Below, piece by piece: positions 411 through 60,181 of a DNA stretch of 63,886 nt. Source of the DNA: Gnetum montanum (lineage: Eukaryota; Plantae; Gnetophyta). The translations under genes and the position numbers were made by a program. The notes under the pieces are model-generated. The model did no database searches. It saw nothing but the letters and a program-made list of their open reading frames with translations, and was not told the DNA's origin. The first letter of the stretch is position 1; the number at the start of each line of letters is the position of its first letter. The stretch covers positions 62,115-126,000 of the forward strand of contig MNCI01001288.1 in NCBI GenBank assembly GCA_015680685.1, in the 5' to 3' direction.

Positions 411-429
411 CGATAGAACTAATACACGC

Positions 430-25600: not shown

Positions 25601-28600
25601 TGCCCTCAAACCCTGTTCACCATAAAATAAAAAAACAAACACACAAGATCCATGGTGTGCACTCCCTCCCCAGCCGCAATGGCGGCCATGGCACCGTGGC
25701 CGTGGCAATAGCGACAGCAGTGGCAATCCCTGCCCATGGCAGGCTGCCCTCTAAACCCCAAGACCCCAAAGCACAAACACATGGGAAGCAAAAAAGGAAT
25801 GAGAAATCATGAGTGTAGCGTGACGACTTACCTGGCAGACGGTGCCTCTTGGCGCTCTTCAATACGTGCCCTGGGAAGACGTCGTAGGGTGTGCTCGCCT
25901 TCACATTGGCAAGGCCAAGGTGTCTACGCTCACTCCTACTTACCATCTTCTTGTTGTCAAGCTCTAGCTCTTTTGTTGTCATGCTCTGTGGATGATACAC
26001 TCTACCTTGGCCACGCTATGCTCGAATGATTGTTGGCTCTAATAGTAAAAATGATAGGCTTACCATGGGTAAATCCCTATTTATACCCTTTAGGGTCAAA
26101 TGACACATCACCCTTCCAGGATGTTTCCCGCGCGTAACACAGAACATCCCGTGTCCCGCACAACGTAACACCTAGAGTTAGAAAAATTGTCTAATTTTTT
26201 CAGCTTTTTACACTTTGAAAATTTTTACAGTTTTTTTGCTTGCCCAATGAACATTCAGCTTGGCCCCATGCTTCAAACATTTTAAGCCTTGCTTAGACTT
26301 ACACCTTACACATAGTCTATGGTCCGCTATGACCTTAAACTGGCAATTTTGTGACCAATCAAGGCCACAGCAAAGAACACAAAAAATAATAAAATATACA
26401 TGAATAAATCACTTTAGATACTACATAGTTAATTTTCATAGCATTGTCTTCCTTATTTTATGCATTTTGCTTCATTAAAACAAGTGCCGCTTGACATTTT
26501 TCTGGTTATCTTCTAGGATCTCTTGAGAAAATGAACGCATACAAGAGTCTTGATTCGCCTTTAGCCTTGACTGAACCTCATGGCAGACTCATGAGATGCA
26601 TAAACACAAAACTTTTGGACTTCGAACTACTTCCTTATGACACCAACATAACATCCCTAGAGACATCACTAGATTGGCCAGAACATCTAGTCCGAGCTTT
26701 AGACTTAGAAGCAAGTGACGTGACTGAGGATCCCCTCATAGAAGTCCCTGTCACAACATGCAAAGGTGAGGCAAAAACATTAAAACTTAGTTCTTTACTA
26801 GAGCCTCAAATCCAACAAAGCATCTCTAGAGTTCTTAGCGACAATGTCAAGGTGTTTGCATGGTCTTACAAAGACATGTCAAGCTTAGACCCCTGTATAA
26901 TACAACATAACATTATCTTAGATCCGTGCGCCAAACCAATTAAACAAAAGGCTTATAAAATCAAGCCTGAGATCGCGTTGGCCGTCCATGATGAGGTCAC
27001 TAAACTTTACCAAGTCAATTTCATCCGAGCAGTTGACTATGCAGATTGGGTTTCAAACATCTTAGTTGTCCCCAAGAAAAATGGAGGTATACACATTTAC
27101 ATAGATTTCTGAGACTTAAACAAGGCAACCATTAAAGATGATTTCCCATTGCCTAGTATTGACCAACTCGTTGATACTACGGCCAATCATGCCTTGTTGT
27201 CCTTCATGGACGGGTCCTTGAGGTACAACCAAATTTGCATCAACCCAAAACACCAGCTTACCACTACTTTCATGACCCCTTGGGGTACATTTTGTTATAC
27301 AATGATGCCCTTTGGATTAAAGAATGCAGAAGCAACATATCAACGTGCAATGACATACATCTTTAGCGACTATCTACTAGAATTGTTCAATGACTACGTT
27401 GATGATATAGCGGTTAAGTCCAAAATGGCTCATGACCACGCGAATGACTTGGACCGTGTCCTCAAACGTTGCCGTAGACATGATCTTCAGCTTAATCCCA
27501 AAAAGTGTGTCTTTGGTGTTAAAACCAGTCGCATGTTAGGCTTTGTGGTATCAAAAACAAGAATATGCGTAGACCCTGACAAGGTCAAGGCTATCACCAA
27601 CTTGGAGGAGGGCGATATCATTTTGCCCACTACTCGAGGGCTATAGGATGCTGCCATGTTTTTCACTGGGCCGATGCCACGCATGCAGAGTCGGCAGGTG
27701 CCCAAATCCACTCTACCACCTGTCTGGGCTCGGGCTACTAAGCTAGTGGACCGTTTTTTTGTATAGTTTGGAAATGGGTCCAAGCTCCAAGGCATCCACT
27801 TTGCGTTTCTCAAATGTCTAAAGTTGGGGATTAGGGTAAATCCACCTCGCTTCTTTCTGGCTATTTTACAACAAGAGAAGAGGGGGCACCATTTTGGGCT
27901 TATTTTGGCCCTTTGGTGGTGGGCAACAGGGGTGTAGCTGCAAGCAGGGCCAAGACCGGGTCCTGACCCCTCGAGGTCATCCTTGCCTAGGCCCTCCTAG
28001 TTGGATCTGCCTGAGGTATCAAGGACTGGGCCTATGGTGCCTTATTCCCAAAAGTGGCTTGGCCACCGAGAGTCGAGTGCTTCCAACCCTATGGTGGTGT
28101 TAAACGTGTCTCCGTGAACGGCGTTAGGATGCGAGGTTTTACGGGATGAGGAGTAGCATTGCGTGGTGACAAAGGTTGCGGCCACTGCCAAGTGGGACGA
28201 AGCCCTAACACATGCACAAGCTAAACTAGAGACCCATTTCCAGGAACAGGAGCAAGAGCTGCTTTGGCAGCAAACTTTGCTAGCGGAGGCTGCCCAAGCC
28301 CAGCTGGCTAACAAGCTCTACACCCAGATCTAGGAGGAGGCTACTCACAGAGAGCACGAGAGGGCGAAGTGGGCACAATAGGGACGAGAACAGGATGAGG
28401 AAAGACAGAGATAGAGGCAGCTAGACTGACACACGAGCAAAGTGCACGCCAATGGCTTCAGGAGGGGCACTGTCGATACATTGTTTTGGGCATAAATTGC
28501 GACTACTCGTGGGGGGTGCTCCAACGACACATCCGCTAGACGTCCACACGTTTCCACCCAAATTGGGGGATGTCGATTGAAGAGCAGAATCGACAAGAGG

Positions 28601-31600
28601 CTACCATGCAAGCAATTTAGTAGGCCACCAATTTTGTAAATTCCAAATTGCACCGTAACACGTTGGATATTCTCCATGCCCTCAAGCACCCGCACTGCGC
28701 ATGTCATAGACTGCCAACAGATCCGTAGCACCAAGTTGCAATCCCCGTTGTTCCCCGATTGGCTGATCTGCCCTTTTGTGTTGTGATTTTATGATGTAAG
28801 TCTTTGCCATCTGGTTTTGTGGTTGGCCGCCCCNCCCCCACCCACCAACCAACCAAGGGGGGTGTTGCCCCTCTCCCCGATCATGGGATCATCCATGTTG
28901 GCCACCCCTAGTGACTCGATTTTGTATTTTACTTTCTAGTAATATTATCCCAAACATTCTAAAAAAAAAGATGTGTATGATGAAGTCACAACTCAAGTTT
29001 GTGCTATTTGTGGAGAGACTATAAACTTTCCTGCAAAGGCAAGGCTACACCAAGGATATGCTCTAAGCCCTCATTTGTCATTATTATGGATGAGCTTACT
29101 AAAGAAATAAAATATACTAAGCTTACTAAAGAAATAAAAGATACTATCCTTTGGTGTATGCTCTTTATAGATGATATTATATGAGTGAATAAATCTAAAG
29201 AACTTCTAGCTACGAAGATGGAGACTTGGAGAAGCACCATAGAACCAAAGGAGTTGAGAAATAGTTTTAGTAAAATGGAATACATGGAGTGCATTTTTCA
29301 TGAAAAAGTGAGTAATAAAAGTATGAATATTAGAACTTAAAACCAACAAGTTACTCAAAGTAAACAATTTCAAAACTTTGGATCACTTGCTCAAATAGAC
29401 AATGAGATTAACAATGAGGTAACAAACAAAATTAAAGCAAGATGAATAAAATGGGAAGAAGCGAGTGATATGTTTTGGGATAGAAGAATCCTTGCTAGGT
29501 TGAAAGAAAAGTTTTATAAAACTTTTATCGTAACTATGATACTTTATGGTGCACAATGTTGGCCTATCAAAAAGCATTAGGCTCAACACATGTATGTGAT
29601 AGAGATGCAAATATTAATGTGGATGTTGGATGTCACTAGGAATGATTGAATAAACAACTCTAATTAGAGCAACTTTGGAGATTGCACCCATAAATAAGAA
29701 GATTAATGGTTTGATCATGTATTGAGAAGATGAAGGAATGCACCTTTTTGAAGAGGTCATAATATTAAAGTTGAGGGGCAACAACAAAGAAGTAGACCTA
29801 AATATACTTTGTTTGTAAGTATAGTGAAAGATATACAAGATTTAAGTACTAATACTAATGTAGCTTTTAAGAGAAATGAATGTCGTAAAAAATTTCATAT
29901 AGCTAACCTTATATAGTTGAAATAAGGGTAAGATGATGATGATGATCAAACAATTGGTAGCAATGACAGAAATAGAAATCTCATCAAACAAAGCATGCAA
30001 TTAGTAGAAAAGCATGTCTTTTTGCAATATTTGATATTTATAAACCAATAACCACAATTGGTAAGAATAGGTATTTTCACAACATTTTCATTTGCACACA
30101 ATTATAACATTTTTGCTCATCTCATACTGGTGCCTAGTGGCCAACTAAATCCCCTAAGTAAGAACCCAATATCCCTACATGTACCCCACAAGTGACGAAA
30201 GAAGTTCACTACCTCAAACGATGTATAGTGGATTAGTCCTTCCTACTTGTTACCTTTTGTAGTGTATTTGTGAACACTGCTAAAATCCACTACCTTAATT
30301 AGAATTTGAGAATCTTCTAGCAACCCTTGTGATGTGGACATCAACTAGACCAATGTGCCATCTCTCCAATGCTTGAGTTTTGACATGTTTGGGAATGTTT
30401 TGAGCCTATTTATATGAGTTTAGGGGGTTCCAGGGTCAATGGGGACTTGTTTGGAGGTATCCAAAGGTTTTTAACATCAAAATAAGCATCTTTAATTTTG
30501 GCCTTGTCATGATAGACGTCTCCCTTGCATGATAGACATCTCCCCTACCATAGTAGATGTCTCCTCCCAAGACAAAACATCTTCTCTGAAGTGTAGATGT
30601 CTACCATATGAGATAGACATCTCCTATGCAAGCCTGCAACTTTGGGAAGATGTCTCCACCTCTTGCAAGGCATCTCCTCTAAGACATCTCCAGTATCTAT
30701 AAGACATCTTAGATCTTAGTTAGAACATCTCCTCTGCATCCAAGACATCTCCTTGTTGAAAAATAATGGACATAAATTTGTATTTAGGCACCAAAATATT
30801 GCAAAAATGTTATAAATAGGCATCAAGGCCTTTTCATTTTAAGGGGGAAGAGTCTAGGGAATTGAGTGAGTGTGTGATGTGAAAGAGAGAAGTGTGTGAA
30901 ACTCATCTTGAGCACTCTTGTTCTTCTTGTTTGTGTGCTATTATTGGCCATTAAGTGGAGAGGGTGAAAGAGAGCCATTATTATTTGGCTGTGTGAGAGG
31001 AGTATGATTGTGAGGATCTTGAGTGTTGTCTATCCTTGGGATGTTTGCTTCCAGCATTTGTATGAATATTCATATTTTCAAGCAAGAATAAAGAGTTGTG
31101 CTTCTTTTTTTGTTTTCAATTGTAGATTCCTATGAGAACTTTGTAGGATTTGGTTTCAATTTGGGGTGTTGGGACTTGGTCCTTACCACCTTGCTGACTC
31201 ATGCAGTAATTTGCCATGTGCACACAAAAATGGTTCCGTAAAATCTTGTGAATAAATAGCTGATGACTTCAAACCCAAAAAAATTTTGTTTATCTTACAA
31301 AACAAGGGTTGTGAATTGATGAGATAATTATTTTTTTATTCCTGAAGTAAAAGTATCCAACATTTGATCCAACAATACACAATATCATATTCATGTCAAA
31401 CTCACAATATTGAGATAGCAAAAACATTAATAGGATCACAACCAAAGTAGAATAGAAATAGGAGAAAAAGCCTTTCCCAGAAAGCCTAATGATTCAAGAC
31501 TGAGGCACATCTCAAATTCCTCCAGATTCAAACCTTAGCAAGAACCTCAATGATAGATTTCTATTCTGAAACAATAAAAATGCAGGTTGTAAAGTGAAAC

Positions 31601-34600
31601 TAAGCAAATGGATTGATGTGCCAAAACAAGAAGTGAAAACTAGGCATCAAAATTGGGCAAACAAGTTGATGTTTCAAAATAACACAAATGCAGGTCAGGA
31701 AGCAAAACTTAAGTAAAAAACATTTATGATGTGGCAGCAATATGGCAATTGGACTTTTACAACCTAAGGTTACCGTTAGGGTTAGGATTGTGATGAGGCC
31801 AAATTCACTTCACTTAGATTAACATTACTGGGATTAGGCTCTAATCCACCATGGCCTCACTACTATTTCCAATTGCATTCAAATAAAATAAAAAACTTAA
31901 TCTAACACCAAATACAAAATGAAAATGAAATTAACTTTTAAAACTATTATTTCTTGTAAAACACAATCTTGTAGCCACTATCATTTAGCATGATTACACA
32001 AATAGCTTAAAATCTGTCAAAGTGCACTAGGCTCAATATAGACATGTCACTGAAATGTAAATGCTAAGGTGGATGTTAGATATAGCTAGGAAAGATAGAA
32101 TTAACAACTCTATTATTAAGTGATGTTTCAAGATAGCAACCAGAGATGAAAAGATTAAGTCATGTTAGATGATTTAGTCATGCTAAGAAGACTAGAAAGT
32201 GCACCTATTAGAAGAAGTTGTTTTATTAAAGAGAATGGAAAGAAACAAAGATATAGACAAAAACAAACATGTTATGCATGAATATACAGAGATATCTAAG
32301 ATTTAGATATTAATATTAATTTTGTCAAAGTTGGTGCAACAGGGGCATCCTCAGCATTTGTGAATTGGACTCAACGTCAGATCTCTATTATTTTATTTTT
32401 GGCCTATGCTAAATTTGTGATTTGACCTCGGCATGGGATCACACTAGCCCAAAATGAGCTAAAAACAAGTGACTACAATTAAGCCACGAGTCCCAACGAG
32501 GCTTGAAACTAGCCACGGCAAGTTGGCCACAAGTTGAGATCTTTACAAAAAACTAACAATGTGTATGGGTTACTATATGTGAAGAAAACATGCCACAAGT
32601 AGACTGCAAGTCATGGTATGGACATAGCCATAGACAAAAAGAGTTTTGCTTACTATGAGTAGACCACAAGTGACAGTGAGGTTGCAACCCTTGTCAAGCC
32701 TAAAAAATAAATCTGCCATAAGTTGACCATGCATCATAGTCTAACAAAGGACCCCAAATTGGTTTACAACGAGTCATGGTGAAGTCACAATCTTTACCAT
32801 AGGTCATAGTGGAATTTGTTTATAGCTTGCAACTTGGTCATGGTGAGTCTAGGGTTTTCTCTAAGCAAACCATGAGTCACAGTGAGCCTAGAACCATGAA
32901 ACCTGCATAAAATTCATGCTCAAATTCATACAAACACATAACTTTAAGGCCAAAGATTGCAAACATTAAGGGGCCTTGTATCAATAATTGGCAAGTGATT
33001 TAGAGAAATTTAAATGAGCCATTCATTTGGGAATCGTTCCACAATTTGATTCCCATGGAAAAGAACAAAGAGGGCAAACTGAAATGGCTAGATGGACTTG
33101 ACAATTGGGCTCAATTCTAACATGTCTCTTCATTTAAGCATGATGTCCTTTCATAACTCGATCCAAAAAAATGACTTATGTGATTGATTTTTTATTTTCC
33201 CAAGAGTAATTTCAAGAATATCTGGATCTCATCATCACCACACTTGGAAGCACTTTGTGTGCAGAATTAGAAATAAGTGCTATATACTAACACCTTCAAA
33301 TTTTATGACTCGTATCATTTTATACTTCTCTAATGCTTAACAGTTCGTTACTTGAATGCATGACGATAGATGAGATAATAATTCTGTTTTGGCTACATTG
33401 ACCTTTTATTCTTCTTTGAATATATGGGTGTTGGACCCCAAAAATAAATATCTTAAAAATAAAAATTCAGAGTACAAAAGCAAAGAAGTAGAGGAGAAAC
33501 TCCAAAACAACAAAAAAAAAGCCCAACAGTTTTAAGGATGCCTTTTCAGGTTTTCATCCTTAAAAACAGTCCTAAAAAACCTCCTCTCTACAATAGGGAA
33601 AGGATTAGACTTTACCCTTGTTCAGAAACACCCAAATGAGTTTTCACTTCCTACTAAAGACTTCCTAAAGAAAAACTAAAGAGAGAAATATTTAGGAATT
33701 CAACTAAAGCATCAACTAGTGAATGATGTCACCTTGAACTGACAATGGAAGAAAATTAGTTAGAGAATTTCTATGAAAAACCACATTACATCAAAACTTC
33801 TAGATGGCATAAAGAATAATAGGACGAAAACAATGCCAAGTATGAAGCAGAAATCATTGAAGCTGAGGAGTGTCACCAAATAAAACTTCATCTAATCTTG
33901 GTTAAAAACCACGGAAATACCTACTATACCAAGTCCAAGAGCTACAAGAAATGGGATAAGCAAAAAACAATGGATTAATGTATCTTCAATGTTGCATACA
34001 GGACATCTAGGGTCATGCATACCCAAATGAGAGCGTTGAACACCAATAGGCAAACCTTGATGAATCAAATACCACAGAAAATGTCTAATTTCTGAAGGAG
34101 TTGTGGCATTTCATATCTTATAAATTCGTTCCTTCCATAACTACACATTGTGATTAACCTTCCAAAGATAATTGAATCTTGGTCAAATATCAATATTAGA
34201 ACTAATAAGAATATACATAATCTTGGACCAATATGGAAAAACATGATGGTCAATAATCCATGAAAAGTCAAGAAAACCATTATGAGAATCTTGAATAGTT
34301 ACACTTCTATCCAAACTATCCAAAAGAAAAAAGAAAAAATGTAGTCTTTTTAGAAACATTAATGTCATAGAGACTTTGACACTCAAACCAAGCAATTCAA
34401 CGATTATACATGCAAAGAGATAAAAGAGAGGAAATGCCAAGCTTACACCATGTATTGCAAAGGCATGGATGCTTAATAGCCCATGGTTCATTATTAATGG
34501 AAAGCCAACAAGGAGAAATCTTATCAAGCATAGAGGTAGAAATAGTAATATTATTGAAGTTCCAAAAATCACTAATAATACTCCAAGCCTTCCAAATGTG

Positions 34601-37181
34601 CTTTATGACAATAGAACCTAATATAATAATACCTTTTAGAAAAAAAATGAATATCTTTCTAGTTTTGGGTTGATCTTGGACTTGTTAGAAAACTCGTTCT
34701 ACAATCTATTAAATGGTAAAATTTCAAATTAATTGGAATTTATTTGATGATTCAAATCTGGCCCAAAAGGGAGGGGGTTTGGAATAAAATTGTTCAGCAT
34801 TCAAAATAGAAAATGCTGATTCGCAATATGAATATCTCTGCAATCCGAGAGAGTTATGGAGTGAATGAATACTTGATACAAAGTTCTTTCAACAATCTAT
34901 CTGGCTACAACGTTTGGACTTAATTTGTGCTAATTTGCTAATTGAAATCTGTAACGCAAGAGTGGCCCTAAATGTGATTGTTCAACTTCTTGATTAATGA
35001 GAATTGGTAAATAGGATGAAATGAGGATGGATGAACTTGTAATAGGATAAATTGGGAAATCGAGAATGGGATTGTAGATGACAAAGAGGATATGAGATAA
35101 TGGGATAAATTGTGGGATTGCTTCAATGACATCAATTGCTTCACTTACAAACATGATTTACCCACATATTTATAATGAAATGATGGGACCATAATAGAAT
35201 ATTATAGGACAAGCCTATTTTATGGGAAACTAGGCTGGAAATTCAAGAGACATAAGAAGTTGGGGCCATTCTCTAATTACATGGAGCAGGCGGGAGTCCG
35301 CTATGCAGGGCATCCAACAGGCGGCAAACTTCATGGACACTAAGGAGCATCGCAACACCTTGGGCCTGCTCCATGAGCTTGAACATCCGTATTGCGTCTG
35401 CCATCATTTGCCGACTCGCCCCTAAGGGCCCCTCCCCCACCGGCGACACAGGTTCTTTTTGCTCCTTCTTCCCCCCACGCTTTTGGTTTTTGCCCCCCTC
35501 CCTTTGTTGTTGATGGGGGTGCCCTCCCTTTGTTGTTGATGGGGATGCGCACTCCCCCCCCCCCCCCCCGGGGGAACGTTTTGTCGATTGGGATGCCGGT
35601 GTTTTGCATGGGGGTCTCCACCCCCTCCTTTTTTCTCGGCAGGCCATTTCTGATGACCCTCGAATTGTATACTCTTGTACTATAATTTTTCAATAATACA
35701 ATCCCGAACATTCTCTCTCAAAAAAAAGTAAAAATAATAGAATTTCCTATTTTGTCTTATGTGCCATAATAATTCAAATATAAATTACATAGCTTTGGTC
35801 CATATTTTAGAAAAAAGTTATTTTGGTTTCACTTGATTTTTCTCTTTTCTTGAAGTTTGAACTTTGTCTTCATGCTTTCACTTGTCTTTGTTGTATTTCA
35901 ATGTATAAATATGGCCTTCAATCACTTTGAATTTGGGCTTATTGAATTCATTTCTCTATCTTGCTTTTAAACTGCAACATAGGCATCTAAAATAAGTGGA
36001 GTAAGAATTTCCAAAGTGCATACTAGAACCAACATATTGTAAGTCTTAATACCTTGCATCACACCTTTCACCATGAAAGAAAAGTTAAAAAACATTGCTT
36101 CTCACATGTATGCCACACCTTCAATTATTTCACTAACCAATCCAGCATCTCCTACTAATTCAAATTTATCTTTTACGAGATACTCGTTACAAATTGACAT
36201 TTGTTTTTATATTCAAATTTTGATATTTTATGACATGTAGTATCGTTGATTGTTTTGTCCTTAAGGTTGCAACATAAAAATATAGCGAACCCTGGCATGC
36301 AAAATAATGAATACAGCAAATCATATGGGAAGAAAAAAAATGTGAACATACATGAATACAATAGAGTAAGCTAATTACTATAAGCAGGGGAGTTTTTATC
36401 TCAATTAATCTTCCTTCATGTAAGAATTTGTCAACATTTAAACTGGGCACGTCTTTCCTCCCTGAATTTGATCCCACCATTTACGTATTCAAAATATTTA
36501 CGTAAAGAAAACTAGGAGCAAAAACTTTCATAAGATTTTGACATATTCTCCTACAGGGATTGTTATACCATCAACTAATGAGTGGTCATTCTGGTAACCT
36601 TGTTACTAGCTGTCAGCAACAATTTTATAATTCTATGATTTTCGCAAAGAAACAATGCAGAAGACAGGCAGACTAGTCAAGCACATAGGTGTGCAATTTT
36701 GAGTTCTGCAGTGGCAGTGATTGATAAAAGACTTATGGGTATGGATGATTAAAAATAGAACTACAAATGGTTAGAAATGGTAACCAGAACAGTTGCTTCA
36801 CCTGAAGATCCCTAACTGTTTAGTGTATGCCGACAGGTACCTGAAAACTGGGCAAAAAGTTCTGTTGCCAGCCTTTTGAGATAAGAACTGAGAGCACCTG
36901 CTGATATCAGGCCCCTCGGCAGCAAGTAGCACCGAGCTACAACCTAACATCATCCACACAAAAATAAAATTAACACCCACTTAGCAGCGGATAATAACAG
37001 AGCTCAGCTGCTCAAGTGAAGTAAGCATTAAATTTACTTGTGAAACTTAAGAGATCGTCACAATCTTGGATTCAAGTTCGTGTGAGAATTTGTTTAAATT
37101 TTGCAAACGAAATCGAAGATGGATTAAAATGAAAGTGTTTTAACCTGTTGGACATAACCTGGCTGACATTGCCAGATTCAT
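3226..37181 (-). CDS. At3g59300/At3g49140-family uncharacterised protein (split-barrel-like, probably plastid-targeted); 9 coding exons, 3'-incomplete in window
   Basis: Exons 37145-37181, 36841-36943, 14372-14603, 14178-14286, 13982-14049, 13740-13871, 13466-13597, 8197-8544, 3226-3378 all have GT-AG borders and compatible phases (1314 nt = 438 codons, no stops). Family motifs recognised: GYH..E.L...LTDAETARTILEAN, YVTDEYGDIYFQVKNDEDIL, MDKPSKGL..G..RP, SLYKLEI, VSLQDFQKAEPDILAHS, ALMALCK. The expected final 'GVDSLG...LLFPR' exons were not found in 1-3225. Confidence 0.9.
3566..5715 (-). mobile_element. L1 LINE, 5'-truncated and internally deleted: ORF2 linker and N-half of RT joined to a coiled-coil/J-domain ORF and 3' UTR (copy 1)
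   Basis: EEETYWKQQS*IRWLREGDRETEFF, KALGPDGWSLEFFK, RFRPIGVCN, NQTGFV, LKLDITKAYDTLSW, RGLRQGDP (~4620); junction to the J-domain ORF (~4610-3820); 3' end TAATATAATCCTGAACATTCTCTC-AAAA. Confidence 0.85.
3820..4610 (-). pseudogene. LINE-borne ORF: coiled coil + J-domain (3880-4071) + HxxxHPxCxCH tail
   Basis: One frame interrupted only by TGA/TAG stops (CGA/CAG decay): KWDEALALAQTELETYF*EQE*ELIWYQALLAEAAQAQ...EEAERAQQEREQDEERQR*RQLDRAHEQSACQWLRDGWCLYIVLGISYNCLWGKLR*HIHRTSVHFHPNRGTLVEEQNRQGSTMQAIQQAANFVDSKLHRNMLDILHAIEHPHCACHRLSTCP*. Confidence 0.75.
6828..6847 (-). mobile_element. LTR-end/PBS junction of a decayed LTR retrotransposon (tRNA-Met PBS)
   Basis: - strand reads ...ATCAACA-TGGTATCGGAGC, near the canonical TGGTATCAGAGC PBS; element limits unresolved. 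Confidence 0.45.
7405..7681. repeat. Direct tandem duplication, period 141 bp, two near-identical copies
   Basis: CATCTTCATTGGCAATCGTC...TTAACTTAGTTGT starts at 7405 and 7546 with about 3 mismatches. Confidence 0.95.
8197..8544 (-). CDS. Host gene exon 8 (VASTDYSKVMDKPSKG...FDGNQ)
   Basis: ATGTAG|GTT acceptor, CAA|GTAAGT donor, 116 codons, family motifs. Confidence 0.92.
9763..10658 (+). mobile_element. Solo LTR (~896 bp)
   Basis: TGTTGG...CCGTCA termini, perfect 5-bp TSD ATCAT, TATA-like CTATAAAT at ~10471. Confidence 0.75.
13008..13280 (-). mobile_element. Short 5'-truncated LINE 3' end
   Basis: GT-rich UTR ending TAATATATTCCCGAAAACTTGCTC-poly(A); TGAATTT on both flanks (candidate TSD). 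Confidence 0.6.
13466..14603 (-). CDS. Host gene exons 3-7 (compact cluster with short introns)
   Basis: YGRRDAF...ARTILE | ANNEAVV...VTDEYG | DIYFQVKNDEDILRSLSTSNSPV | HCLIGLES...DFYDE | FWNQL...IDPMEFSTILAE; canonical splice sites. Confidence 0.92.
15050..16215 (-). mobile_element. Ty1/Copia RT-RNase H remnant
   Basis: WKIHQLDVKSGFLN, VCKLKKSL..LK*AP.AWY, KEVDWIRKLL...IFMDNYS...RHIGTKFH.I.E...QVADILTKPL; many stops and frameshifts. Confidence 0.85.
16438..16512 (+). mobile_element. Degenerate tRNA-derived SINE head
   Basis: A-box-like TAGACTAGTGG and B-box-like GGTTCAATTCT about 30 bp apart; no cloverleaf. Confidence 0.3.
16945..17210 (-). mobile_element. Short 5'-truncated LINE 3' end
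   Basis: Poly(T) on + followed by a GC-rich UTR; - strand ends TAATGCATCTCGACTTTTACTC-poly(A), related to the other LINE ends. Confidence 0.6.
18447..18456 (+). promoter_or_regulatory. TATA box (CTATAAATAC), candidate promoter of the + strand accessory gene
   Basis: Consensus plant TATA ~590 bp upstream of ATG 19039. Confidence 0.45.
19585..19657. repeat. (CT)n microsatellite in intron 2 of the accessory gene
   Basis: Imperfect then perfect CT run. Confidence 0.9.
20219..20481 (+). repeat. 132-bp (44-codon) tandem duplication inside exon 4 of the accessory gene
   Basis: ACAGCTRTGATTGACTACGCCAG...GGAAGGACTAYAGC starts at 20219 and 20351. Confidence 0.9.
21280..21510. repeat. 27-bp tandem array TAGTTTAAGGCCATTTCGGGCCATCGC (5 + 2 copies)
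   Basis: Directly visible; lies downstream of gag-pro, a usual place for arrays in Tat/Ogre elements. Confidence 0.9.
22945..26085 (-). pseudogene. Second spliced retroelement accessory gene, plant-mobile-domain/Transposase_32-like
   Basis: TATAAATAG on - at 26077-26085; CAG|GTAAGT donors at 25831 and 24036; segments LQWVGLMDLFL...LVDSF...FSDLFGVP and YNWAKYLVDGLR...HVHFAFFVACL resemble plant TE accessory domains; exon chain only partly resolved. Confidence 0.5.
24910..25370. repeat. Array of AAATTTTTCTAAGTGTT + GTCACGCTC-N5-GAGCGTGAC hairpin units
   Basis: About five hairpin units, 50-110 bp apart; related CTAAGTG-containing units at 17280-18010. Confidence 0.8.
26531..27603 (+). mobile_element. 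Ty3/Gypsy (Tat/Ogre-like) reverse transcriptase pseudogene, cut off by a LINE insertion
   Basis: VFAWSYKDM, WVSNILVVPKKNG, IDF*DLNKA, LLSFMDG..YNQI, TPWGTFCY.MPFGLKNA.ATYQRAM, YVDD, LNPKKCVFG, VDPDKVKAI. Confidence 0.92.
27604..28969 (+). mobile_element. 5'-truncated LINE 3' portion with coiled-coil/J-domain ORF (copy 2)
   Basis: Colinear with copy 1 from ~27990; KWDEALTHAQAKLETHFQEQEQELLWQQTLLAEAAQAQ...CRYIVLGINCDYSWGVLQRHIR*TSTRFHPNWG...MQAI**ATNFVNSKLHRNTLDILHALKHPHCACHRLPTDP* (stop 28728); ends TAATATTATCCCAAACATTCT-poly(A). Confidence 0.8.
28970..29946 (+). mobile_element. RTE-clade LINE 3' fragment
   Basis: RLHQG.ALSP, ILWCMLFIDDII, SKMEYMEC; (GAT)5 tail. Confidence 0.8.
30330..31188 (+). 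mobile_element. Solo LTR (~859 bp)
   Basis: TGATG...TACCA termini, perfect TSD CCTTG, AGACATCTCC repeats upstream of TATAAATAGG (~30811). Confidence 0.8.
33900..35280 (+). mobile_element. Highly decayed L1 ORF2 remnant
   Basis: Scattered motifs such as PK..GGLGI at ~34765; otherwise riddled with stops. Confidence 0.35.
35284..35727 (+). mobile_element. Short 5'-truncated LINE 3' end carrying the intact C-terminus of the J-domain ORF (copy 3)
   Basis: 35303-35425 MQGIQQAANFMDTKEHRNTLGLLHELEHPYCVCHHLPTRP*; C/G-run UTR; ends TAATACAATCCCGAACATTCTCTCTC-poly(A). Confidence 0.85.
36841..36943 (-). CDS. Host gene exon 2 (GCSSVLLAAEG...FCPVF-S)
   Basis: Acceptor TTAG|GT, donor TTCAG|GTACCT; ends phase 2 as the exon at 14603 requires. 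An in-frame alternative donor (CAG|GTGAAG, exon start 36802) would add 13 codons. Confidence 0.6.
37145..37181 (-). CDS. Host gene putative first coding exon (MNLAMSARLCPT-G)
   Basis: ATG at 37181-37179, donor CAACAG|GTTAAA; phase 1 matches the next exon. No family conservation in this presumed transit-peptide region, so inferred from phase only. Confidence 0.5.
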
Positions 37182-38199: not shown

Positions 38200-38958
38200 T
38201 GTAATCCATCTATTATGCATACATAGAAAGGAGTTGTTGTGATACCAAATTTTCTCTAAGTGGCACATAATCTAAATGACTTAGCAACCTAAACCCCTTT
38301 ATTAAAAGAAAGCCACCATAAGCTAATTTGTTGAAGCATTTCTTCTAAAATTGTAATATGATTGTAATTCCAATACTTACTAAGTTTGAACCATGTCTTT
38401 TAATTTTTTTTAAAAAACTAAAGAATCAAGGATAGCAGTAGCATGAGGAAAAAAAGATAATGAAGAAAGTTCTTAAATGACTAATTGTTATCATTTCTAG
38501 GTTTCTTGCATAAGTCTATTTCTTAAAAGGAGCATCCAAACATTATCTCCATCAAGGAACTTTGCAATCCATTTTGCTATGAGAAAAATACCGTAGTTAT
38601 AATAATTAATGAGGCCAAGCCCTCCATCTTTCTTGCAACTAGTGCAAATATTCCAAGTAACTCTAGAATAGCCTTCTTTTATGTTGCTTAGTAGACCAAA
38701 GAAACTAATGGATAATATGATTAATTCTATCATAAGAAATTTTATAAGGAGAGCAACAATTGAAGAAATAAATATGAGATGACTAAAGCATTTTCTTAAT
38801 AACTAAAACTTCGCTAGCAAAGCTGAGCTATTTTTCTTTCCATACATCAAGCTTGTTTATAATTTTATCAATGCATAATTCTACAATATAGTAAGATTAA
38901 GTTCAAAAGAAAAAGGTATTCATAAAATTTTGAAAATAAACTCTTTTTTCAAAAATGT
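38200..38958 (-). mobile_element. L1 ORF2 C-terminal remnant, target of the LTR element; probably continues at 46410-46800
   Basis: RVTWNICTSCKKDGGLGLIN...LIAKWIAKFLDGDNVWMLLLR. Confidence 0.7.
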
Positions 38959-41900
38959 TGATGAAGTGTATTTTGTCTAGCTTTGATATTGGAGGCCTAA
39001 TATCGGATACCCAATATTAGGGTTCAAGAAGCGATGTCGGATATTTGATATCATGGGAGGCATGCCAGCCTATAAATATAACACTTGGACACATGGTTTG
39101 GGCATTCTTTTGCCAATAGAGTAGTCAAACTCTTGCAATTTTATTCTATAGTCTCAGAGAATAGTTAGTGAGTGCCCAAAGTGTGGATCTGAGTCAATTG
39201 TACAACGTCATATTTAAGTGGCAATGTACCTGAACACATTCCATGAATAACAATAAGATCAAGATTGATTCTTATTCATTGCAGCACTTTGACTTAAATT
39301 AGATTTACTTTCCATGCAATTTACTTTTCATGTACTTAGTTAATATTTGTGTTTCCATGCATATTAATGAATTAGTGAAATGAGTGCGACCAATCTCAAG
39401 CATAAGCACATATTTGCTTGGTAACCCCAATAGCCGTATACTTATGTAGATGTACAACAAGCTACCACTTTGGACTAAATCATACGTGACAAAGCTACCA
39501 CTAGTCAAAATGGGAAGACAACGTCCTACGATCAATGCTTACCAATGTAGATGCCATACTAGTCCCATCCACAGAACTCAACTAGATCGTGCATGAACAC
39601 TTGTGAGTTGTATTGTTGGGTGTAGGAGGTACATGCCACTCATCATTGGTGCCATTGTCAAGGATGGTGCTAGCTATCTAGATTAGTTATATTATATACG
39701 ATCATTGTAAATACATTAGTGATTTATCTTTCAAAAAATATTAAGTCACACACATCATAAACTAACAACAATGTCTCTTTCACATGGAAGCGATAATGCA
39801 TCTTATGAAGAGAACATTCATTAGAGAACTAATGAGATATATATTGAAGAAAATTGAAGTGACCAACCTCATGCAAGGGGTTCATATGTTCGTGACCATC
39901 CTAACTACACTCAAGAACTACATTCACCTAATGCAAACAATCCTAGAGGAGATGGAGTAAGTTCTAGATTGGGGAGGGCCTCAAGGTCTAAGACCTCCTC
40001 AAAACCTAGAAAAGATAAATCAAGGTACCATTGGTAGAACTATAGAAGCCATGGTGATTCTCCATGTTTCTCATCTTCCTCTTCCTCTTCAACATCTAGT
40101 TTTGATGAAGATGAATGTAGGTATAGAGATAAAGCTCCACTATGAGGTCAAAATAAGGATAGAAATTAACACCAAGGGCAAAATCAAAGACATTAAAATG
40201 AACATAGGCGAGATTATCACAATCATACAAATAGAAATAGAAATTTTCACTACTATATGTTTGATGCTAGTGAACCCTTGTTGGCCACTAAGAGCATGAT
40301 GTAGATTATAGAGGCAATTAAAATACCCCACAGGCATTGAAGGAAAGGTTGCATCAAAAGGCTTGATATGAATAACATCCCTAAATTTGCGGGAGGCTAT
40401 AATTTTGATCCACAACATCATTTACAAGCCTTCCATGATGCCTGCATCTTACAAAACATTGAAAGTGAGTAGAAAAGCCTTAGGCTCTTTCCTAGGACAC
40501 TCATAGACAAAGCTGAAGTATGGTATAGATCATTGAAACCAAATTTAATCCATCGATGGTCCACAATGCTAGAACTCTTCAACGAGAAATACCAAACCTA
40601 TGCGATGGTGTCCAACCTAAGGAAATGAATCCAAGGATGGGAATAGGAACAACATGAACCCTTGGATATGGCTCTAAATAGATACTATTCTCTACTACAT
40701 AGATGTCCAAGCCATGAATTCTCTCAAAAAGAGCAACTTTTTCACGTCATAGATGGGCTTCGTAGTCAAATGAGAGAGACCCTTGTGATTTATGCCCAAG
40801 GTCGATTATACAAATTAAAAGCTCATTAGATACAAAGGCTAATCGAGCAAGTGGCAAAAGAAGAAGGAGAGCTATGTAAATGAGAGATTGTAAAGGAAAA
40901 TAACTGGGTTGCAACTCTCCAAAAGAAAAGGATCAATATCTATGATAAGGAAAAAGACACAGCTCTCAATGAGGTGATTTCACAACAAACCTTATCAATA
41001 CAAAAGTCTATTGATGAGCTTGAAGTAAGGCTAGATAAGGTGTGGGAGTTAATGAATGACAAAGTTACAAATTACATAAAAATCGTGGAGGAGAAAGTAA
41101 CACAAAATGAATCAAGTGATCAAAACAAGAGGAGGAAAAAGAACCAAGAAATAGTTAGGAACACTTGATGACAAAAAAGGAAAATAGCTATAGAAGAAGA
41201 GGTTATAGACTCAACCATAGAAGAGGATGATGGATGTGACATCTACCTATATGACCATCCAAAGGATTATTGCCTAGTCATGTTATATTTACATGAGTAT
41301 ACAACTTTTTCTTTGAATCCCAAGTTTGTACAAAAGTAAATGCTTAGGAAATTACCTTACTCATAAGGTAATTATAGATAGTCCTACAACCAACTATACT
41401 ATCTTAGTGGGACTTCTTATCAACCTTAAAACTACTTTCAACCACAATGGCAAAACCCATAATCATGGGGGAGGCCATCATCAAACTAGCACTACCCTTA
41501 TTGTCAGCTAGACCCATCTGGATACTATGTTCAACAACCTGTTTTCCCAACTAGTTCTACTTTCCCTACCTCAAATCACTACTACCACTTTCCTGAGTAT
41601 CATCAACTTGTAACATCTTATGAAGGATCACCATCTCACACCTCTCATCCTTCATCATATCCTCAATATTTTCATACTTCCCTCCACCATATGTCATCAC
41701 CAATAATATAGGAAGGTTTAGTATCACAACATCAATGAAAGAATGCCACTTGTGTTGTGAACATACATGGAAATGATAATGCTACTAGATCTCAACCACA
41801 ACCTTAGAAACATCCTTTCTTTAGGATAGTTCCCATGCATAAGCATAAAACACGTAGATCTACTAGCACATCAAAACCAACATAAGGCCAATCTGGTGCA

Positions 41901-44900
41901 ACAACTATCCCTGCCAAAACAATGCCTCCTAATCATACGCAAAAGCCAACAACCATCATCACTCTAGCATAGGATGGAAATGATGAACACATCATTGTGG
42001 AGAGACAGAAATCATCATGCATCACTAATAATGATAAAGGGTGTAGTTGTGAGTTGGAAATTCAAAATATTAACACAACCTACAACAAAGCTAAGGAACA
42101 AGTGTGTGAGCAAAAACTAGTCTACGTAGTAGCCACTAAACTAGAAGACACCTAGTGGCTTAAAAATGAGACTAGAAAGCTATTTCAAAGATGCATGGAA
42201 GCAACTACTCCACTTATAAGTTCTAGACTTAAGAAAACAAACCAAATAGAGGACTTAGACATAGATATCTTACACTTTAATTATACACTAGAAGAGGATA
42301 TTAAACATGGAGACCTAGGAATTAAAATAGAAAATCAAGAAGAAGAAGAAGCAAACACATCTGGATCTCCAAAATAGAAATACCTTCAAGTCCAAATGAA
42401 GATACATCTCTAAATGATCCAAATGAGACTATTACCAATGTTAGATGTGCTACCACACAATTAATTAAATCAGTAATAGTTTTTTTTGGAAAACTAGTGG
42501 TGTATAATTAGGGGATTGTGTGATCCATCTCCCAAATGTGTGGCCATAAGATTAGTCATGGGGGAGATGCTCTATCCTGGTTCAAGAACTAATAAATGTT
42601 TTTCACTTTTTTGTTTTACAATTCTTTATCATTTTCCTATTTCTTCCAAAATTTTCTGATTTTTAATATGTTTTCCATTTCTTAATATTTTTCTCTTTTT
42701 TTTGAGTTATTTTTTTATGTTTTATAAATTTTTTTCTTATGCTTTCATTAATAATATTGCCACTCATGATGCAAAAGTCAACGCTATGTGTTGAGAGTTT
42801 GTGCTATGCTATCAAGATGATTGGGTAAGTAATTGTGTAAAACAGTGAGACCACCTCATCCATCCCTCTAGTTCTCTAAATAAAAGGTCTTTTTCATGGA
42901 AAAAGTTTGGTTCTTCTTTCATGAAACTAAAATTAATCAATGATCATTGCACCTTGACGAAAGAGGGAATGACCAAGTGAGAATGGTAAGGGTGTGACCC
43001 CAAGGGGATTTGTTGGGTTCTCTTATTGACTTCCTTTATGTGGTTTATGACTCCTCAAGGAATGTATCATCACTCCTTTGTTGACCACTAAATAGGAAGC
43101 TATGTCTTTGCATGGTGTGGTTTCCATTTCAAAAAAATTTAAAATCCAAAAAAAAGACAACCAAAAAATGAAAAAATAAATAAAAAAATTATTAAAAAGA
43201 AGAAGAAGAAAAAAAAATAATAATAATGGGAATTCAAAGCACATCCCATAGACACAATAATGAGCTACAAGCATTGGTTATGGGGCTAGAAATACATGTT
43301 ATCCATGCCTAAAGGCACCTCTCTAACTAAGGCCCTTCCTTCCTTCTTCTCTTTTTGGAGTGATGATTATTCTTTGAGGTGGTTGTGGACTCATGGTTAT
43401 TGATGGGACGCGATATCGCATGGGTTGCGATATCACGTCGGCCCCTGCGATATCGCATACGTGATATCGCAGCCCATCGCCTTGTCTATAAATAAGAGGC
43501 ATCTTTCCCTTGTAAGATTATCTAGATCTAGACCCTTAGCTAAACTTTGGTAGTTTTACCATTCTAGAGATAGAATAATTTCCATGTGTCCACAGTAGGA
43601 GTCTCAAAGTGAACGAATCTTTATTCGAGCAAATTGTAACTGAGCACACATTTGTGTACCGAAATAAAGACAAACTTTCTGATAAACCTTGCAGTGCATG
43701 GACTAAGCTAATTATGATTTAATTAATGTTAAATGCTTAAATTCTTTCTTAGATAATTAATCTCTCTCAACCCTCAACTCCTACTTAAGTGCATTCAGTA
43801 TGACCGCTTCGAGCATGTGTGCTACGCTTGGTAACCCAGTAACGAATAGTGTTTGGTAATCCCAGTAGCGTTGCACTGGTTTAGGGTGTGTACGGCAAGT
43901 GGAAACGGATATTGATGCTAGGACGATTAAAGCTTAGTTAGTAAAAGTTAGTTACTTAGTCTCTTCACCCTTTCCTCTCTTAGCATAGGCGATAAAAAGA
44001 TAAAAGTTATAAAAATCATATACCTCAGACTTACTTAACCATACAACCGTGACAATACAAGTAAGTTTGGGAAGACAACGATTGATTAACCTTAAGTGTT
44101 CCATAAGGTGCATAAGCACTTAGTCCTTGGAGTTCGACTGGATCACGCGTGAGACGCTTGTATTCGTATGGTTGAGTGTAGGGGTACCTCGCCACTCATC
44201 AATTATCGAGAGGAAGGAACACATCAATGTGAGCTCACTATTCATGGTATGGACTTGGTCTGAACTTGGATAGATACTTATGCTGATCATTTTAATCATA
44301 TTTTTCACAATATCCTATTGTGGACATGGTTAAGTATCTTATATCTTGATCTTTGCAATCCCTTCTTATCCCATTATTCACCTCACTACTGCATGTAATT
44401 ATGAACCTTTTTATTTTGTGTAGTATAGTGCAACATTCCAACAATGACAGTTGTGTGTTGTTTGGAACAAAGGCATAGTCTACATTTAACTTCTTAGGTG
44501 CCCATGGACATCTATAAAAGTTGTTAGGCAAGGGCATTATGGTAGGAGCCTACTTTGTGGAGGACCCACTTGCATAACTTTTTGTTGATCATGGCTTCAA
44601 ACTAACCTTCACATCTTTGAAAACATCAATGATGATTTCTCTAAATTTATGCATAATTTTGGGACTAATTCTCATTCATTTCATTAATTTTTTCTACTTT
44701 TCTATTTCCATATCCATTAATATTTCTTGGCAATCTTCTAAATTAGAGCTTTGGTTTCAATTATTTGAAAACTTATGTGCTTTGAAATTTTTTTAAAAAA
44801 TTTCTAACATCCTATTTTCAAACATTATGGTAACTAATAATAATTGACCAAAATAAGATGAACAACTTGATGATTTTAGTTACCTCATAGCCTTGGGCAT

Positions 44901-46409
44901 AGTATGTTGTCATCACCTTGTGCTTAAATGCAAACTAAGGGATCCGAAAAGGGTTGATTATTAAGGAAAAATTTACCAAAACCAATGTTGATCCTTTGGT
45001 GACTACAGGTGATGCTAAAAGAGTCAGGTGATGCTAAAACAAATGCCTAAGGAAGAAGGTCTTTTTCTAGGCACGAAAATGAAGCCAATAGAGGGAGAAA
45101 GGAGGATATTCCCATGGATAAATTGTAGCACATACAAGATAGCAGCTCAAGAATTACATGTTTGCTAGATCCATGGAGCGAGGAGAAGAAATTTTAATCC
45201 TTCCTTCAAAAATGTTCTACATAACTAGAGAAGCATCAACATAATAACCAAGGTTGGAATTCTACCATCGCTAGCGGCAACAAGAAGAATCATCTTAAAT
45301 ATATTTTTAAAGACCTCTAAAAATTTTGTAATCTTCAATTTCTATCTGGTCTTTTTTTACTTTGTCATTTTGTATGCATCCACTTGAATAAAATTTTATA
45401 ATGCAACACTCAAAGTCAATTAGTAGTTAGCGTCAGTCAATAATTCCATACAATCTCAATATTTTGTAAGGGACTTGTTCCTCCTTTTATTCACTTAAGG
45501 ACAAGTTTTCATTTAGTTGTGGAGGTATGATGAAGTGTATTTTTTCTACCTTCGATATCGAATATTCGATATTGGAATCTTAATATTGGACACCCGATAT
45601 CGGGGCCCAAAAAGCGATGTTAGATATCTAATATGGTGGGAGGCATGAAAGCCTATAAATATAACACTTGAACACACAGTTTGAACATTCTTTTTCCAAT
45701 AGAGTAGCCAAACTCTTGTAGTTTTATTTTGTAGTCTTAGAAAATAATGAGTGAGTGCTTACAATGTGGATTTGAGTTAGTTGTATGATGTCTTATTCGA
45801 GTGGCAATGTGCCTAGACATATTCCATGAATGGTAATAAGATTGAGATTGATTCTTAATCATTGTAGCACTTTGACTTAGATTAGATTTACTTTCCATGC
45901 AATTTATTTTTTATGTACTTAGTTAATATTTATGTTTCCATGCATATTAATGAATTGGAGGAATGAGTGTGACTAGTCTCGAGTGTAAACACGTATTCGC
46001 TTAGTAACCCCAACAGTGTTATTGTTTGGTTCACCCAGTAGCATAACACTTGGTAATCCTAGTAGTGGATACATTGCTTTATGATGTGTGGGGCTAGCTA
46101 GGAATAAGCACTCATTGCCCATAGGCTAGTTTAGACTTTACTTTCCATTATCAATTAGATTAAATAATTAATTTCTCTATTATCATAAGATTAACATAAG
46201 GCCAAAACAACATCAATAATCATATGCCTCACTTTGGACTAAACCATACATGACAAAGCTACCACTAGTCCAAGTGGGAAGACAACGTCCTCGGATCAAT
46301 GCTTAACAATCTAAATGCCACGTTAGTCCCATCCATGAAACTTGATCAGATCATGCGTGAATGTTTGTGATTTGTATGGTTGGGTGTAGGGGGTACCCAC
46401 CGCTCATCA
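38959..46409 (+). mobile_element. Athila-like non-autonomous LTR retrotransposon (decayed gag, no pol)
   Basis: LTRs 38959-39645 and 45528-46409 (TGATG...CATCA), perfect TSD AATGT, PBS TGGTGCCATTGTCAAGGA (Athila tRNA-Asp type), gag PKFAG...DPQHHLQAFHDAC...LRLFP.TL.DKAEVWYRSL at ~40380-40600. Confidence 0.9.
43401..44201 (+). mobile_element. Solo LTR (801 bp) nested in the Athila-like element
   Basis: TGATGGG...CTCATCA, TSD GTTAT/ATTAT, GCGATATCGC repeats then TATAAATA; colinear with 60182-60984. Confidence 0.9.
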
Positions 46410-49400: not shown

Positions 49401-49960
49401 TTGATGATATGGACTTTGGAATTATTTAAAAAAAATAAGGCCCTTGCATTTACATTCCATGGAAGGCCCTAGAATCATAACAAAGGAAATTTTAATGGAT
49501 GTTTGTAGGAACTTTCAATAGCCACATGTCGCTTCTTAGAGATCTACAAGATTGGATGGCTGAGGCCTAGCATGAGATCCTAATTTAACTAAGAACTTTT
49601 CATGGTAATGTGGTTCTTTTATTTTCAAACACGAGAAAGATATTTTTCCATTGAATCTATGCTCGCTTGGTAGATAGGTCATCTTATTAGGTAAGTAGAG
49701 AAATAGATTTCATGGCACTTACCAAGGTTGAAGGAGATCAATGGCTATATCTAGACCAAGAGATGATTTGTAATGTAGCCTCAACTTCCTAGACTTTTGA
49801 TTGAGTTCTAGTTTGAAAGGATTTTATGCAAAATCATACATACTTTTAAGGAGCTGATGATGATAGACTTCTGAACCGCAAAAGCTCTTCCTAGTTTAAT
49901 GGCCCATATCTATGTGCATATGTCAAATAAAATTGTTATTTTCTTATAGATTATCCTATA

Positions 49961-50663
49961 TGATGAGATGCAGATTGCACAAGCCGCGATATTGCGTCTT
50001 TCCCTGCGATATCGTGTATGCGATATCACGGTCCGCCGCCATATCTATAAATAAGAGGCGGCACTCCCCTCATTTCTCATCCTAGGCGTAAAGTAGTGAA
50101 GCTCTGGCGGATTGATCACCCTAGAGTTAGAATATTTTCCATGTGCCCGCAGTAGGAGTCCCCCAAGTGAACGGTTCTTTATTCGAGCAGCTTTGTACCT
50201 GAACGCAAGTTGTGTACGGCAATAAAGACGAGCTTTGTGGATAAACCTTCCAGTGCATGGATAGGTTTAATTAATGTTATTTATTGCTTTCCTAGTGGCG
50301 CGGCATGAGTACAACTTGGTTACGAGCGTTGACGAACGTGTACGGCTAGNNNNNNNNNNNNNNNNNNNNNNNNNNNNNNNNNNNNNNNNNNNNNNNNNNN
50401 NNNNNNNNNNNNNNNNNNNNNNNNNNNNNNNNNNNNNNNNNNNNNNNNNNNNNNNNNNNNNNNNNNNNNNNNNNNNNNNNNNNNNNNNNNNNNNNNNNNN
50501 NNNNNNNNNNNNNNNNNNNNNNNNNNNNNNNNNNNNNNNNNNNNNNNNNNNNNNNNNNNNNNNNNNNNNNNNNNNNNNNNNNNNNNNNNNNNNNNNNNGA
50601 CCGGATCGTGCGTACACGCTCGTATTCGTATGGTTGAGTGTAGGGGTACCTCGCCACTCATCA
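49961..50663 (+). mobile_element. LTR (apparent solo) of the same family, spanning the assembly gap
   Basis: TGATGAG...CTCATCA, perfect TSD CTATA; similar to 43401-44201. Confidence 0.85.
50350..50598. other. Assembly gap (N run)
   Basis: Run of n characters. Confidence 1.
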
Positions 50664-59200: not shown

Positions 59201-60181
59201 CTAACTTATTTATACTTCATCATACCTCCAAAACTAACTAAAAACTCATCTTTCGAGTGAACAATAATGAGACTAAGTTATTTACAAGATTGGTAAAGTA
59301 TGAAACTAATGAATTAATTAATTGACTATTAAAGACATGAGAGCTACATTACAACAAAATTATTTGAGGGATTACAATTAGATTTAACAACATTGGATGC
59401 TTTACAAAAATTTGAATAAAAATTGGACTAGATGTTATGTACAAAATGATCCAAGGTAGATGCTTCAGGTAGTACTAGGAGGTGGTTGTTTTTGTGGCTT
59501 TCATGATTGCTTCTCTTACCTTGGTTCTACTAGTAGTCTCAACTACTCCACTATTGCTACTACTACTTTTGATAATTGAAAGAAATCCAACAATGCCTTC
59601 ATCTTTTTTTTCTTGCTCATGGGATTATTTATGGTCCAGGAAGCATCGCCTAGATTTGATGGTGTAGGTACATGATGAGTGTTTAGAGAATTCCAATACT
59701 CAACCATACAAGTTATAAGTGTTCATATGTGACAAGATCCTAATCCATGAATGGACAATGCAAGTATATCAATGTGTTGATAGTAACTTTGTGATCATTA
59801 TCTTCCCACTTTGAGTTAGCAAGGTATAAAATATATGGTTTAATTCTTAGTGAGGTGTATGATAAAATGATGTTGGTCAGCTTTAAGTATGCTAAATGTA
59901 GACATAGTGAAAATGAATGGGATTTCTATCTCTAAGTATAATGAAAACATAAAGCTATTCTTGGCTATGGTGATAACTATCCATTCCTAGTTTTCTGTAT
60001 ATGTCCTTGGCAAACATAATTGTTACTGGGATTACCAAGTAACTTTACTACTAAGTGAATTAAGTAAAGTCACTACTAGGATACCAAATAATATACATTA
60101 GGCTCAAAACTAGGCTTACTTGTTCTACTTTACTAATGAACATTGGAATAATTAATGACTTGGAAAATGTAAATGACTTGG
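53201..60181 (-). mobile_element. Older related LTR (53201-59223, split by the 53584-58772 insertion) plus its 3' internal region
   Basis: Degenerate family LTR motifs on both sides of the ATTAT TSD; ends CATCA followed by TACCTCC (PPT side). Confidence 0.6.
53584..58772 (-). mobile_element. LTR retroelement with no gag or pol, only a spliced Athila env-like/Transposase_32-like coiled-coil ORF
   Basis: LTRs 53584-54446 and 57871-58772, perfect TSD ATTAT, PBS-like TGGCACAGT at ~57861-57869, leader intron 57530-57836, decayed ORF from ATG 57529 to ~54774. Confidence 0.85.

Follow-up and report, generated by a model that had tools for sequence, protein, structure and literature searches.

A 3′-terminal frame under purifying selection, encoding a likely J-domain, in three decayed copies of a probable LINE family in Gnetum montanum

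Long interspersed nuclear elements (LINEs) are generally considered to require two proteins, and any further gene that lasting selection maintains indicates what limits these elements in their hosts. Extra conserved 3′ open reading frames (ORFs) in plant long terminal repeat (LTR) elements are already known (PMC7264820), as are extra domains in LINEs. Insect R1 LINEs carry a viral SF1 helicase domain that complemented a suppressor-deficient virus and is partly shown to suppress silencing (PMC4686597), and the extra ORFs of some plant LTR elements encode SMC-like coils or transposase_28-type domains (PMC7264820). J-domains are encoded by polyomaviruses in their T antigens (PMC8567380) and occur in 11 RNA virus families (bioRxiv 10.1101/2022.02.15.480533). 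In Arabidopsis, host J-proteins act at methylated DNA, whose output DNAJ1/2 promote and SILENZIO enforces (PMC12902148). Among retroelements, a Gypsy lineage of orchids carries a demethylase gene of its own (PMC12786077). Here we analyse a stretch of 63,886 nucleotides (nt) from Gnetum montanum (assembly GCA_015680685.1, contig MNCI01001288.1, positions 62,115 to 126,000, forward strand), called the window below. On balance, we lean towards reading three loci in it as the decayed remains of one poly(A) retroelement that is present in many copies and likely belongs to the L1-clade LINEs; purifying selection has shaped its 3′-most frame (the J-ORF), which codes for a likely J-domain through which host Hsp70 would be recruited.

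The window is rich in repeats, and its element types suggest a land plant. Self-comparison and a six-frame profile search find three copies of the J-ORF in it and no fourth. Their parts, in window coordinates, are as follows.

3566–5722, minus strand: copy 1, 5′-truncated; half of an L1-type ORF2 joined to the J-ORF, then 3′ untranslated region (UTR) and tail.
4617–5722, minus strand: L1-type ORF2 fragment of copy 1, from the post-endonuclease linker through the reverse transcriptase (RT) to its QGDP motif, with stops and frameshifts.
4605–4626, minus strand: in-frame RT/J-ORF junction of copy 1, where RT similarity ends and similarity to the copy 2 J-ORF starts; a deletion or template switch.
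3820–4615, minus strand: J-ORF of copy 1, with linker, Glu/Arg/Gln-rich helix (about 4380–4081), J-like domain and His/Cys tail; six internal stops.
3880–4074, minus strand: J-like domain of copy 1, with the motif His-Pro-Asn (HPN) at 3993–3985.
3563–3567, minus strand, with its twin at 5728–5724: possible 5-nt target-site duplication of copy 1.
About 27597–28969, plus strand: copy 2, 5′-truncated within the J-ORF; its 5′ end is approximate, placed where the neighbouring Gypsy RT stops.
About 35285–35727, plus strand: copy 3, the 5′-truncated 3′ end of an element, with the J-ORF end, 3′ UTR and poly(A).
35303–35425, plus strand: the 41 final codons of the copy 3 ORF, free of internal stops; about 35303–35365 encode the last part of J helix III plus helix IV, and the His/Cys tail and TAA follow.
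35672–35727, plus strand: conserved 3′ tail and A8 of copy 3, 39 of 46 columns identical to copy 1.

Copy 2 has a 1-nt frameshift near 28421, HPN at 28555–28563, a stop at 28726–28728, the tail and A9, and it extends about 130 N-terminal codons beyond the junction of copy 1. Copy 3 had been placed at 35284–35727, as a third copy of a J-domain ORF, by an earlier reading made from the letters alone (the sequence-only reading). In-frame similarity continues for about 5–6 codons upstream of the 41-codon block, beginning at about 35285–35288. Of the J-domain, copy 3 has only about 21 codons (end of helix III, helix IV), followed by a 19-residue His/Cys tail; the loop with the canonical His-Pro-Asp (HPD) motif is absent.

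The J-ORF family resembles plant L1-clade LINEs in the linker-plus-RT fragment of ORF2, whose nearest protein has endonuclease and RT domains, and in the poly(A) end, the 5′ truncation and the divergent UTR with a conserved tail; unlike those LINEs, it has a selected 3′ frame with a long helix, J-like domain and His/Cys tail. Two fragments of another L1 family in the window (33895–34600 and 38235–38800, minus; zf-RVT E 9e-6; mutual tblastx match) lack a J-ORF, unlike copy 1. The insect R1 LINEs likewise keep a foreign 3′ domain, proposed and partly shown to counter silencing, but they belong to another clade and host, and their domain is a helicase, not a co-chaperone, and is fused to ORF2 (PMC4686597). 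The plant LTR elements Grande, RIRE2, Retand and PvRetro13 share with the J-ORF family an extra ORF near the 3′ end that is kept across copies and has no host parent, whereas the J element has no LTR, a poly(A) tail and its ORF in sense orientation; no J-domain is mentioned for them in the text consulted (PMC7264820). A search of the N-terminal 125 or 275 residues of copy 2, a single decayed copy with low power, found no Pfam family at E ≤ 10, including the Transposase_32/ATHILA-type domains (PF20167, PF03078). The J-domains of polyomavirus T antigens (PMC8567380) and of RNA viruses (bioRxiv 10.1101/2022.02.15.480533) also give a selfish element its own Hsp70 co-chaperone module, whereas here the element is a non-LTR retroelement, the likely J-domain is C-terminal, and HPD and HPN are mixed. 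The Arabidopsis SUVH1/3-DNAJ1/2 and MBD5/6-SILENZIO pairs include J-proteins that tip methylated chromatin to expression or silencing, which makes them a possible target of mimicry; they are host genes, and no sequence link to the J-ORF was found, although none was specifically looked for (PMC12902148).

The last 41 codons of the ORF align without gaps and with a common stop position in copy 3 (plus, 35303–35425), copy 1 (minus, 3942–3820) and copy 2 (plus, 28606–28728). Between copies 1 and 3, 13 codons are identical, 14 differ silently (TAG/TAA included) and 14 change the residue. The silent pairs are exactly those listed by the sequence-only reading, which was also right that there are no indels and that the stop position is identical; it left the 14 residue-changing codons unmentioned. 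The differences at codon positions 1/2/3 number 9/7/25, so that 25 of 41 fall in third positions, and in 100,000 column shuffles the observed silent codons (p = 0.0017), residue identity (p = 2e-5) and third-position differences (p < 1e-5) are all rare. The ratio of nonsynonymous to synonymous differences (pN/pS) for the same pair is 0.22 in the coding frame and exceeds 1 in all but one of the five others. We also considered the antisense coding frame, which shares third positions and has a pN/pS of 0.46, and rejected it for its stops and weaker constraint.

A GY94 codon model fitted to 232 sense codon pairs of copies 1 and 2, with 15 pairs containing a stop set aside, gives an omega of 0.32 (likelihood ratio test (LRT) 31.6, p 1.9e-8), with values of 0.11 for the J core, 0.19 for the long helix and 0.18 for the last 41 codons. 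Silent sites between copy 3 and copies 1 and 2 are saturated and omega is not estimable there, but omega = 1 is rejected (LRT 29.7 and 40.8); all of these tests are pairwise between single decayed copies, not between subfamily consensuses. A three-way split of the differences by codon position gives 5/6/18 on the branch to copy 3, 2/1/2 on that to copy 1 and 6/1/7 on that to copy 2, with 6 ambiguous; the signal of purifying selection thus comes chiefly from the long branch that leads to copy 3, where third positions hold 18 of 29 differences. The proposal that the J-domain ORF evolved under purifying selection therefore survives the codon model and the frame controls, as well as the methylation-decay null discussed below. 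The accompanying statement that the protein was functional in distinct active subfamilies is borne out as to selection, and “active” can be taken as past activity only, as no intact copy or translation was seen.

All three copies have a poly(A) 3′ end, a 5′ truncation and no LTR, and all end in a common conserved tail followed by A’s. The 3′ UTRs of copies 1 and 3 had been described as barely alignable, which holds outside the last 90 nt (local score 22, p ~0.065) and fails for the last ~46 nt, which are conserved (p ≤ 0.005). Family reads cease matching copy 1 at 5722 and 3566, and at 3566 A-rich loose ends of reads appear in all four runs. With reads aligned to copy 1 at 80% likeness, the summed contig depth in DNA run X1, which is not a copy number, is about 10 in the flanks, 430–2585 over the J-ORF, 388–4263 over the ORF2 part, 97 in the mid-UTR and 5363 in the tail, and run X4, which carries another species label, has a profile of the same shape. 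This shows that many relatives exist and that the ORF is better kept than the UTR. Because the tail behind the stop is common to all copies, the silent divergence would have arisen after the ORF sat on a poly(A) element, and selection acting after mobilisation, inside a retroelement family, is supported.

Two oligo-dT RNA runs yielded 1167 and 955 reads over both the ORF2 and J parts of copy 1. Most of these (1004 of 1167 and 824 of 955) are less than 90% alike to copy 1 and only 2 and 3 are 99% alike, so relatives are transcribed and copy 1 hardly at all. Reads are about equal on both strands and many contain stops, and much of this RNA may therefore be passive transcription. No intact message was found in these reads. 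A TAG at 4137 (minus), just before the J-domain in copies 1 and 2, was considered as a conserved read-through stop and rejected as a family feature: C accounts for 346.9 of the 549.9 DNA depth at this site, and the loose ends encode Gln, although only 16 of 64 aligned RNA reads carry the sense C.

The ORF2 fragment of copy 1 matches Pfam RVT_1 (E 1.8e-12) and holds only the N-terminal half of the RT. The sole homologue returned for it (104 candidates) is 36% identical, has PF03372 (endonuclease) and PF00078 (RT), and aligns over the linker and RT; from the domain order and linker motifs we take the fragment to belong probably to the L1 clade. RT similarity stops just after the QGDP motif, and similarity to the copy 2 J-ORF begins there, in frame and on the same strand. 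Copy 2 carries its additional N-terminal codons at this point, so the junction removed both the C-terminal half of the RT and the beginning of the J-ORF. Copy 1 as a whole lies between two 5-nt repeats that may be a target-site duplication (chance ~0.025), which gives modest support to one insertion covering its RT and J parts. The ends of copies 2 and 3 show no target-site duplication; we rejected as a candidate the 10-nt match found 85 nt ahead of copy 3, because it is AT-rich and away from the boundary. The simplest reading is that copy 1 is an internally deleted LINE copy with the J frame last, and that the host element is likely an autonomous LINE, which rests on this one rearranged copy; ORF1, the endonuclease and the C-terminal half of the RT were not seen for the J-ORF family. 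The earlier placement of the ORF inside a LINE family thus stands as a poly(A) retroelement family with one copy joined to an L1-type RT.

Copy 1 covers positions 2–63 of the 63 in the Pfam DnaJ model (12.1 bits, E 0.22). A profile of the copies finds one match among 1.84 billion protein representatives (E 2.8e-5), a J-protein with three DnaJ domains that aligns through the J region, and all four PDB matches at E ≤ 10 are J-proteins; a PDB search with copy 1 alone gave one unrelated match (E 1.8). Loose ends of family reads, translated by eye, show helix I beginning with a Pro-Tyr pair that is gone from copy 1. From these similarities we consider a divergent J-domain probably real. Asp at the motif site, and hence HPD, exists in the family: it is found in 4 DNA contigs (47.5 of 81.6 depth) and in 16 of 19 aligned RNA reads, which by appearance are mostly of one transcript type and come from three runs, two of them of one sample. 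The His and Cys residues of the tail after the J helices are invariant in all three copies, and metal binding by this tail is a guess.

Several results weigh against our reading. The J similarity of a single copy is weak, its Pfam score lying below the cut-off of 27.8; the best PDB match reaches only E 0.21; and an AlphaFold model built from the 3 sequences is uninformative (predicted local distance difference test score, pLDDT, 52). Copies 1 and 2 have HPN, as do the other 3 of the 19 aligned RNA reads and 20 further RNA reads of run X20 in which the motif is visible only as a loose end; in the 30-nt loose-end piece CG and CAG are preserved, and HPN may therefore mark a genuine subfamily. Constraint on the linker between copies 1 and 2 is not significant (omega 0.50, p 0.078). 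The RT–J junction is itself a rearrangement, and none of the contigs listed crosses it. With so few RNA reads having C at the stop common to copies 1 and 2, many transcribed copies are broken, and no intact copy or full-length element was seen. Finally, the target of the J protein is argued from analogy only.

The alternative that survives best, and that we nevertheless consider unlikely, places the J-ORF on a retroposon that is not autonomous: L1 proteins would move it in trans, as an accessory gene that has borrowed a LINE tail, and copy 1 would be a template-switch chimera or two insertions fused by deletion. Such a history would fit an RT that ends right after QGDP and a J-ORF that begins mid-linker, the absence of ORF2 from copies 2 and 3, the low depth just upstream of the junction (~48–51 at 4656–4661 in X1), the lack of a spanning contig among those listed and a target-site duplication of just 5 nt. 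However, DNA and RNA read depth are of the same order on ORF2 and the J-ORF, 5′ truncation suffices to explain copies 2 and 3, and long-term selection on a passenger gene would be harder to sustain than in a lineage copying its own RNA.

Less probable still is a pseudo-J-domain, in which the ORF is selected and element-borne and an HPN hairpin binds Hsp70 or another partner without stimulation, or serves as a scaffold only. In its favour are the weak similarity to the J profile and the HPN motif of copies 1 and 2, which is also found in a transcript that looks lightly decayed, and the same D-to-N change at the HPD site abolishes HSC70 binding in polyomavirus T antigen (PMC8567380). Yet HPD is present in DNA contigs and RNA reads, and the D-to-N change here is a G-to-A at a CHG site. 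Of the 21 CWG sites present in either copy 1 or copy 2, both copies retain only 3, a count that is approximate because genuine silent changes enter into it; with CWG loss at ~0.7–0.8 per copy, two HPN copies are expected from decay alone, and CHG decay would often produce the HPN found in copies 1 and 2.

A host origin, in which selection acted on a J-protein gene or gene family of the host and the copies arose from it as processed pseudogenes, we hold to be very improbable. Poly(A) and 5′ truncation fit retrocopies too, and the check for a parent consisted of protein searches. These searches found no homologue of the copy 1 ORF among 909 scored protein candidates and, as weak evidence, none of the family alignment in longer proteins among 7993 scored; among the 1.84 billion representatives the only match was the J-protein with three J-domains, and 372 pattern matches in metagenome contigs gave 0 confirmed. 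Against a host gene stand also the depth of 40–260x flank, RNA reads that are mixed in likeness and no deeper than on the RT part, silent sites saturated between copies with a common LINE-like tail, and an omega well below 1, compared with the neutral divergence expected of pseudogene copies. The view that this is not passively transduced host DNA is thereby upheld, by the lack of a host parent in protein searches together with selection, the common tail and the many-copy depth.

The copies have decayed heavily at CHG and CG sites. Internal stops number 14 in the aligned part; 13 occur in a single copy each, and for 9 of these the facing codon is CAA, CAG or CGA. When CG/CHG transitions are removed, third positions still account for 17 of the 28 differences left between copies 1 and 3 (p 0.003), and the excess holds in all three pairs (p 0.003, 0.0002 and 0.039). 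In context-dependent neutral simulations with methylation decay, 0 of 3200 reach the observed 24 third-position differences and 1 of 3200 reaches the observed residue identity. An origin of the third-position excess in methylation decay or transition bias on dead DNA is thus largely refuted and retains almost no probability, despite the heavy decay, the high kappa between copies 1 and 2 (8–18) and the lack of significance for transversions alone between copies 1 and 3 (8 of 16 in third positions, p 0.13), since the UTR differences show no codon pattern (31/24/31) and neither the removal of those transitions nor the simulations account for it.

Under the reading we prefer, a selected J frame on a likely L1-clade LINE, full-length elements would carry ORF1, ORF2 and then the J frame of at least 377 codons, either as a third ORF or as an extension of ORF2. 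Its product would be an adaptor, with the N-terminal domain and long helix binding a complex on the element’s own RNA or chromatin and the J-domain triggering Hsp70 there to remodel it. By analogy with DNAJ1/2 and SILENZIO, the insect LINE helicase domain and the orchid demethylase, the target may be a host silencing complex, which we prefer slightly to a role in folding the element’s own RT particle; J-domains within RNA virus polyproteins are proposed to act in this second way (bioRxiv 10.1101/2022.02.15.480533). Copies would then die by C-to-T decay, which would account for the internal stops and part of the HPN states. A bolder version, which we offer tentatively and think unlikely as a whole, is that an autonomous plant LINE lineage kept, until silent sites were saturated, its own Hsp70 adaptor directed at the complexes that silence the element, and split into activating (HPD) and decoy (HPN) subfamilies; the adaptor would be a retrotransposon counterpart of the viral T-antigen J-domains and a rival to DNAJ1/2 and SILENZIO. 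If true, an element with its own J-domain would compete with the host over Hsp70 in plant transposon control, where J-proteins of the host are already at work on methylated DNA. No retrotransposon-encoded J-domain appeared among the literature matches listed, which include few subscription papers.

Other parts of the window surround the copies. A short poly(A)-ended element with a G-rich body at 13010–13300 (minus) has a weakly similar tail (nhmmer E 0.51) and no J-ORF. Four frames on the minus strand (14366–14719, ~13400–13900, 8152–8544 and 3175–3408) resemble exons of one host gene; those scanned have no Pfam match and 3175–3408 has no PDB match, and if the four belong to one gene, copy 1 would sit in its intron in sense orientation. 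Copy 2 has on its 5′ side a Gypsy-type RT that breaks off (26495–27596, plus; RVT_1 E 8e-20) and on its 3′ side a fragment read by eye as an RTE-type RT (28970–29300, plus), neither of which continues across it. Pfam searches of 117 of the 147 stop-free frames of at least 66 residues gave only zf-RVT and one weak BofA match; some of the other 30 frames were in a separate Pfam scan and the rest lie within the three copies. A frame of ~300 codons with one internal stop at 22945–23853 (minus) has no convincing Pfam match and no match to the copy 2 N-terminus (E 1.4), and we take it to resemble LTR accessory ORFs. A non-coding LTR-like or MITE-like (miniature inverted-repeat transposable element) repeat family, with 71–87% identity and some members inverted, occupies 43400–44200, 49960–50660, 53584–54500, 57871–58700, 60180–61050, 38959–39645 and 45528–46409.

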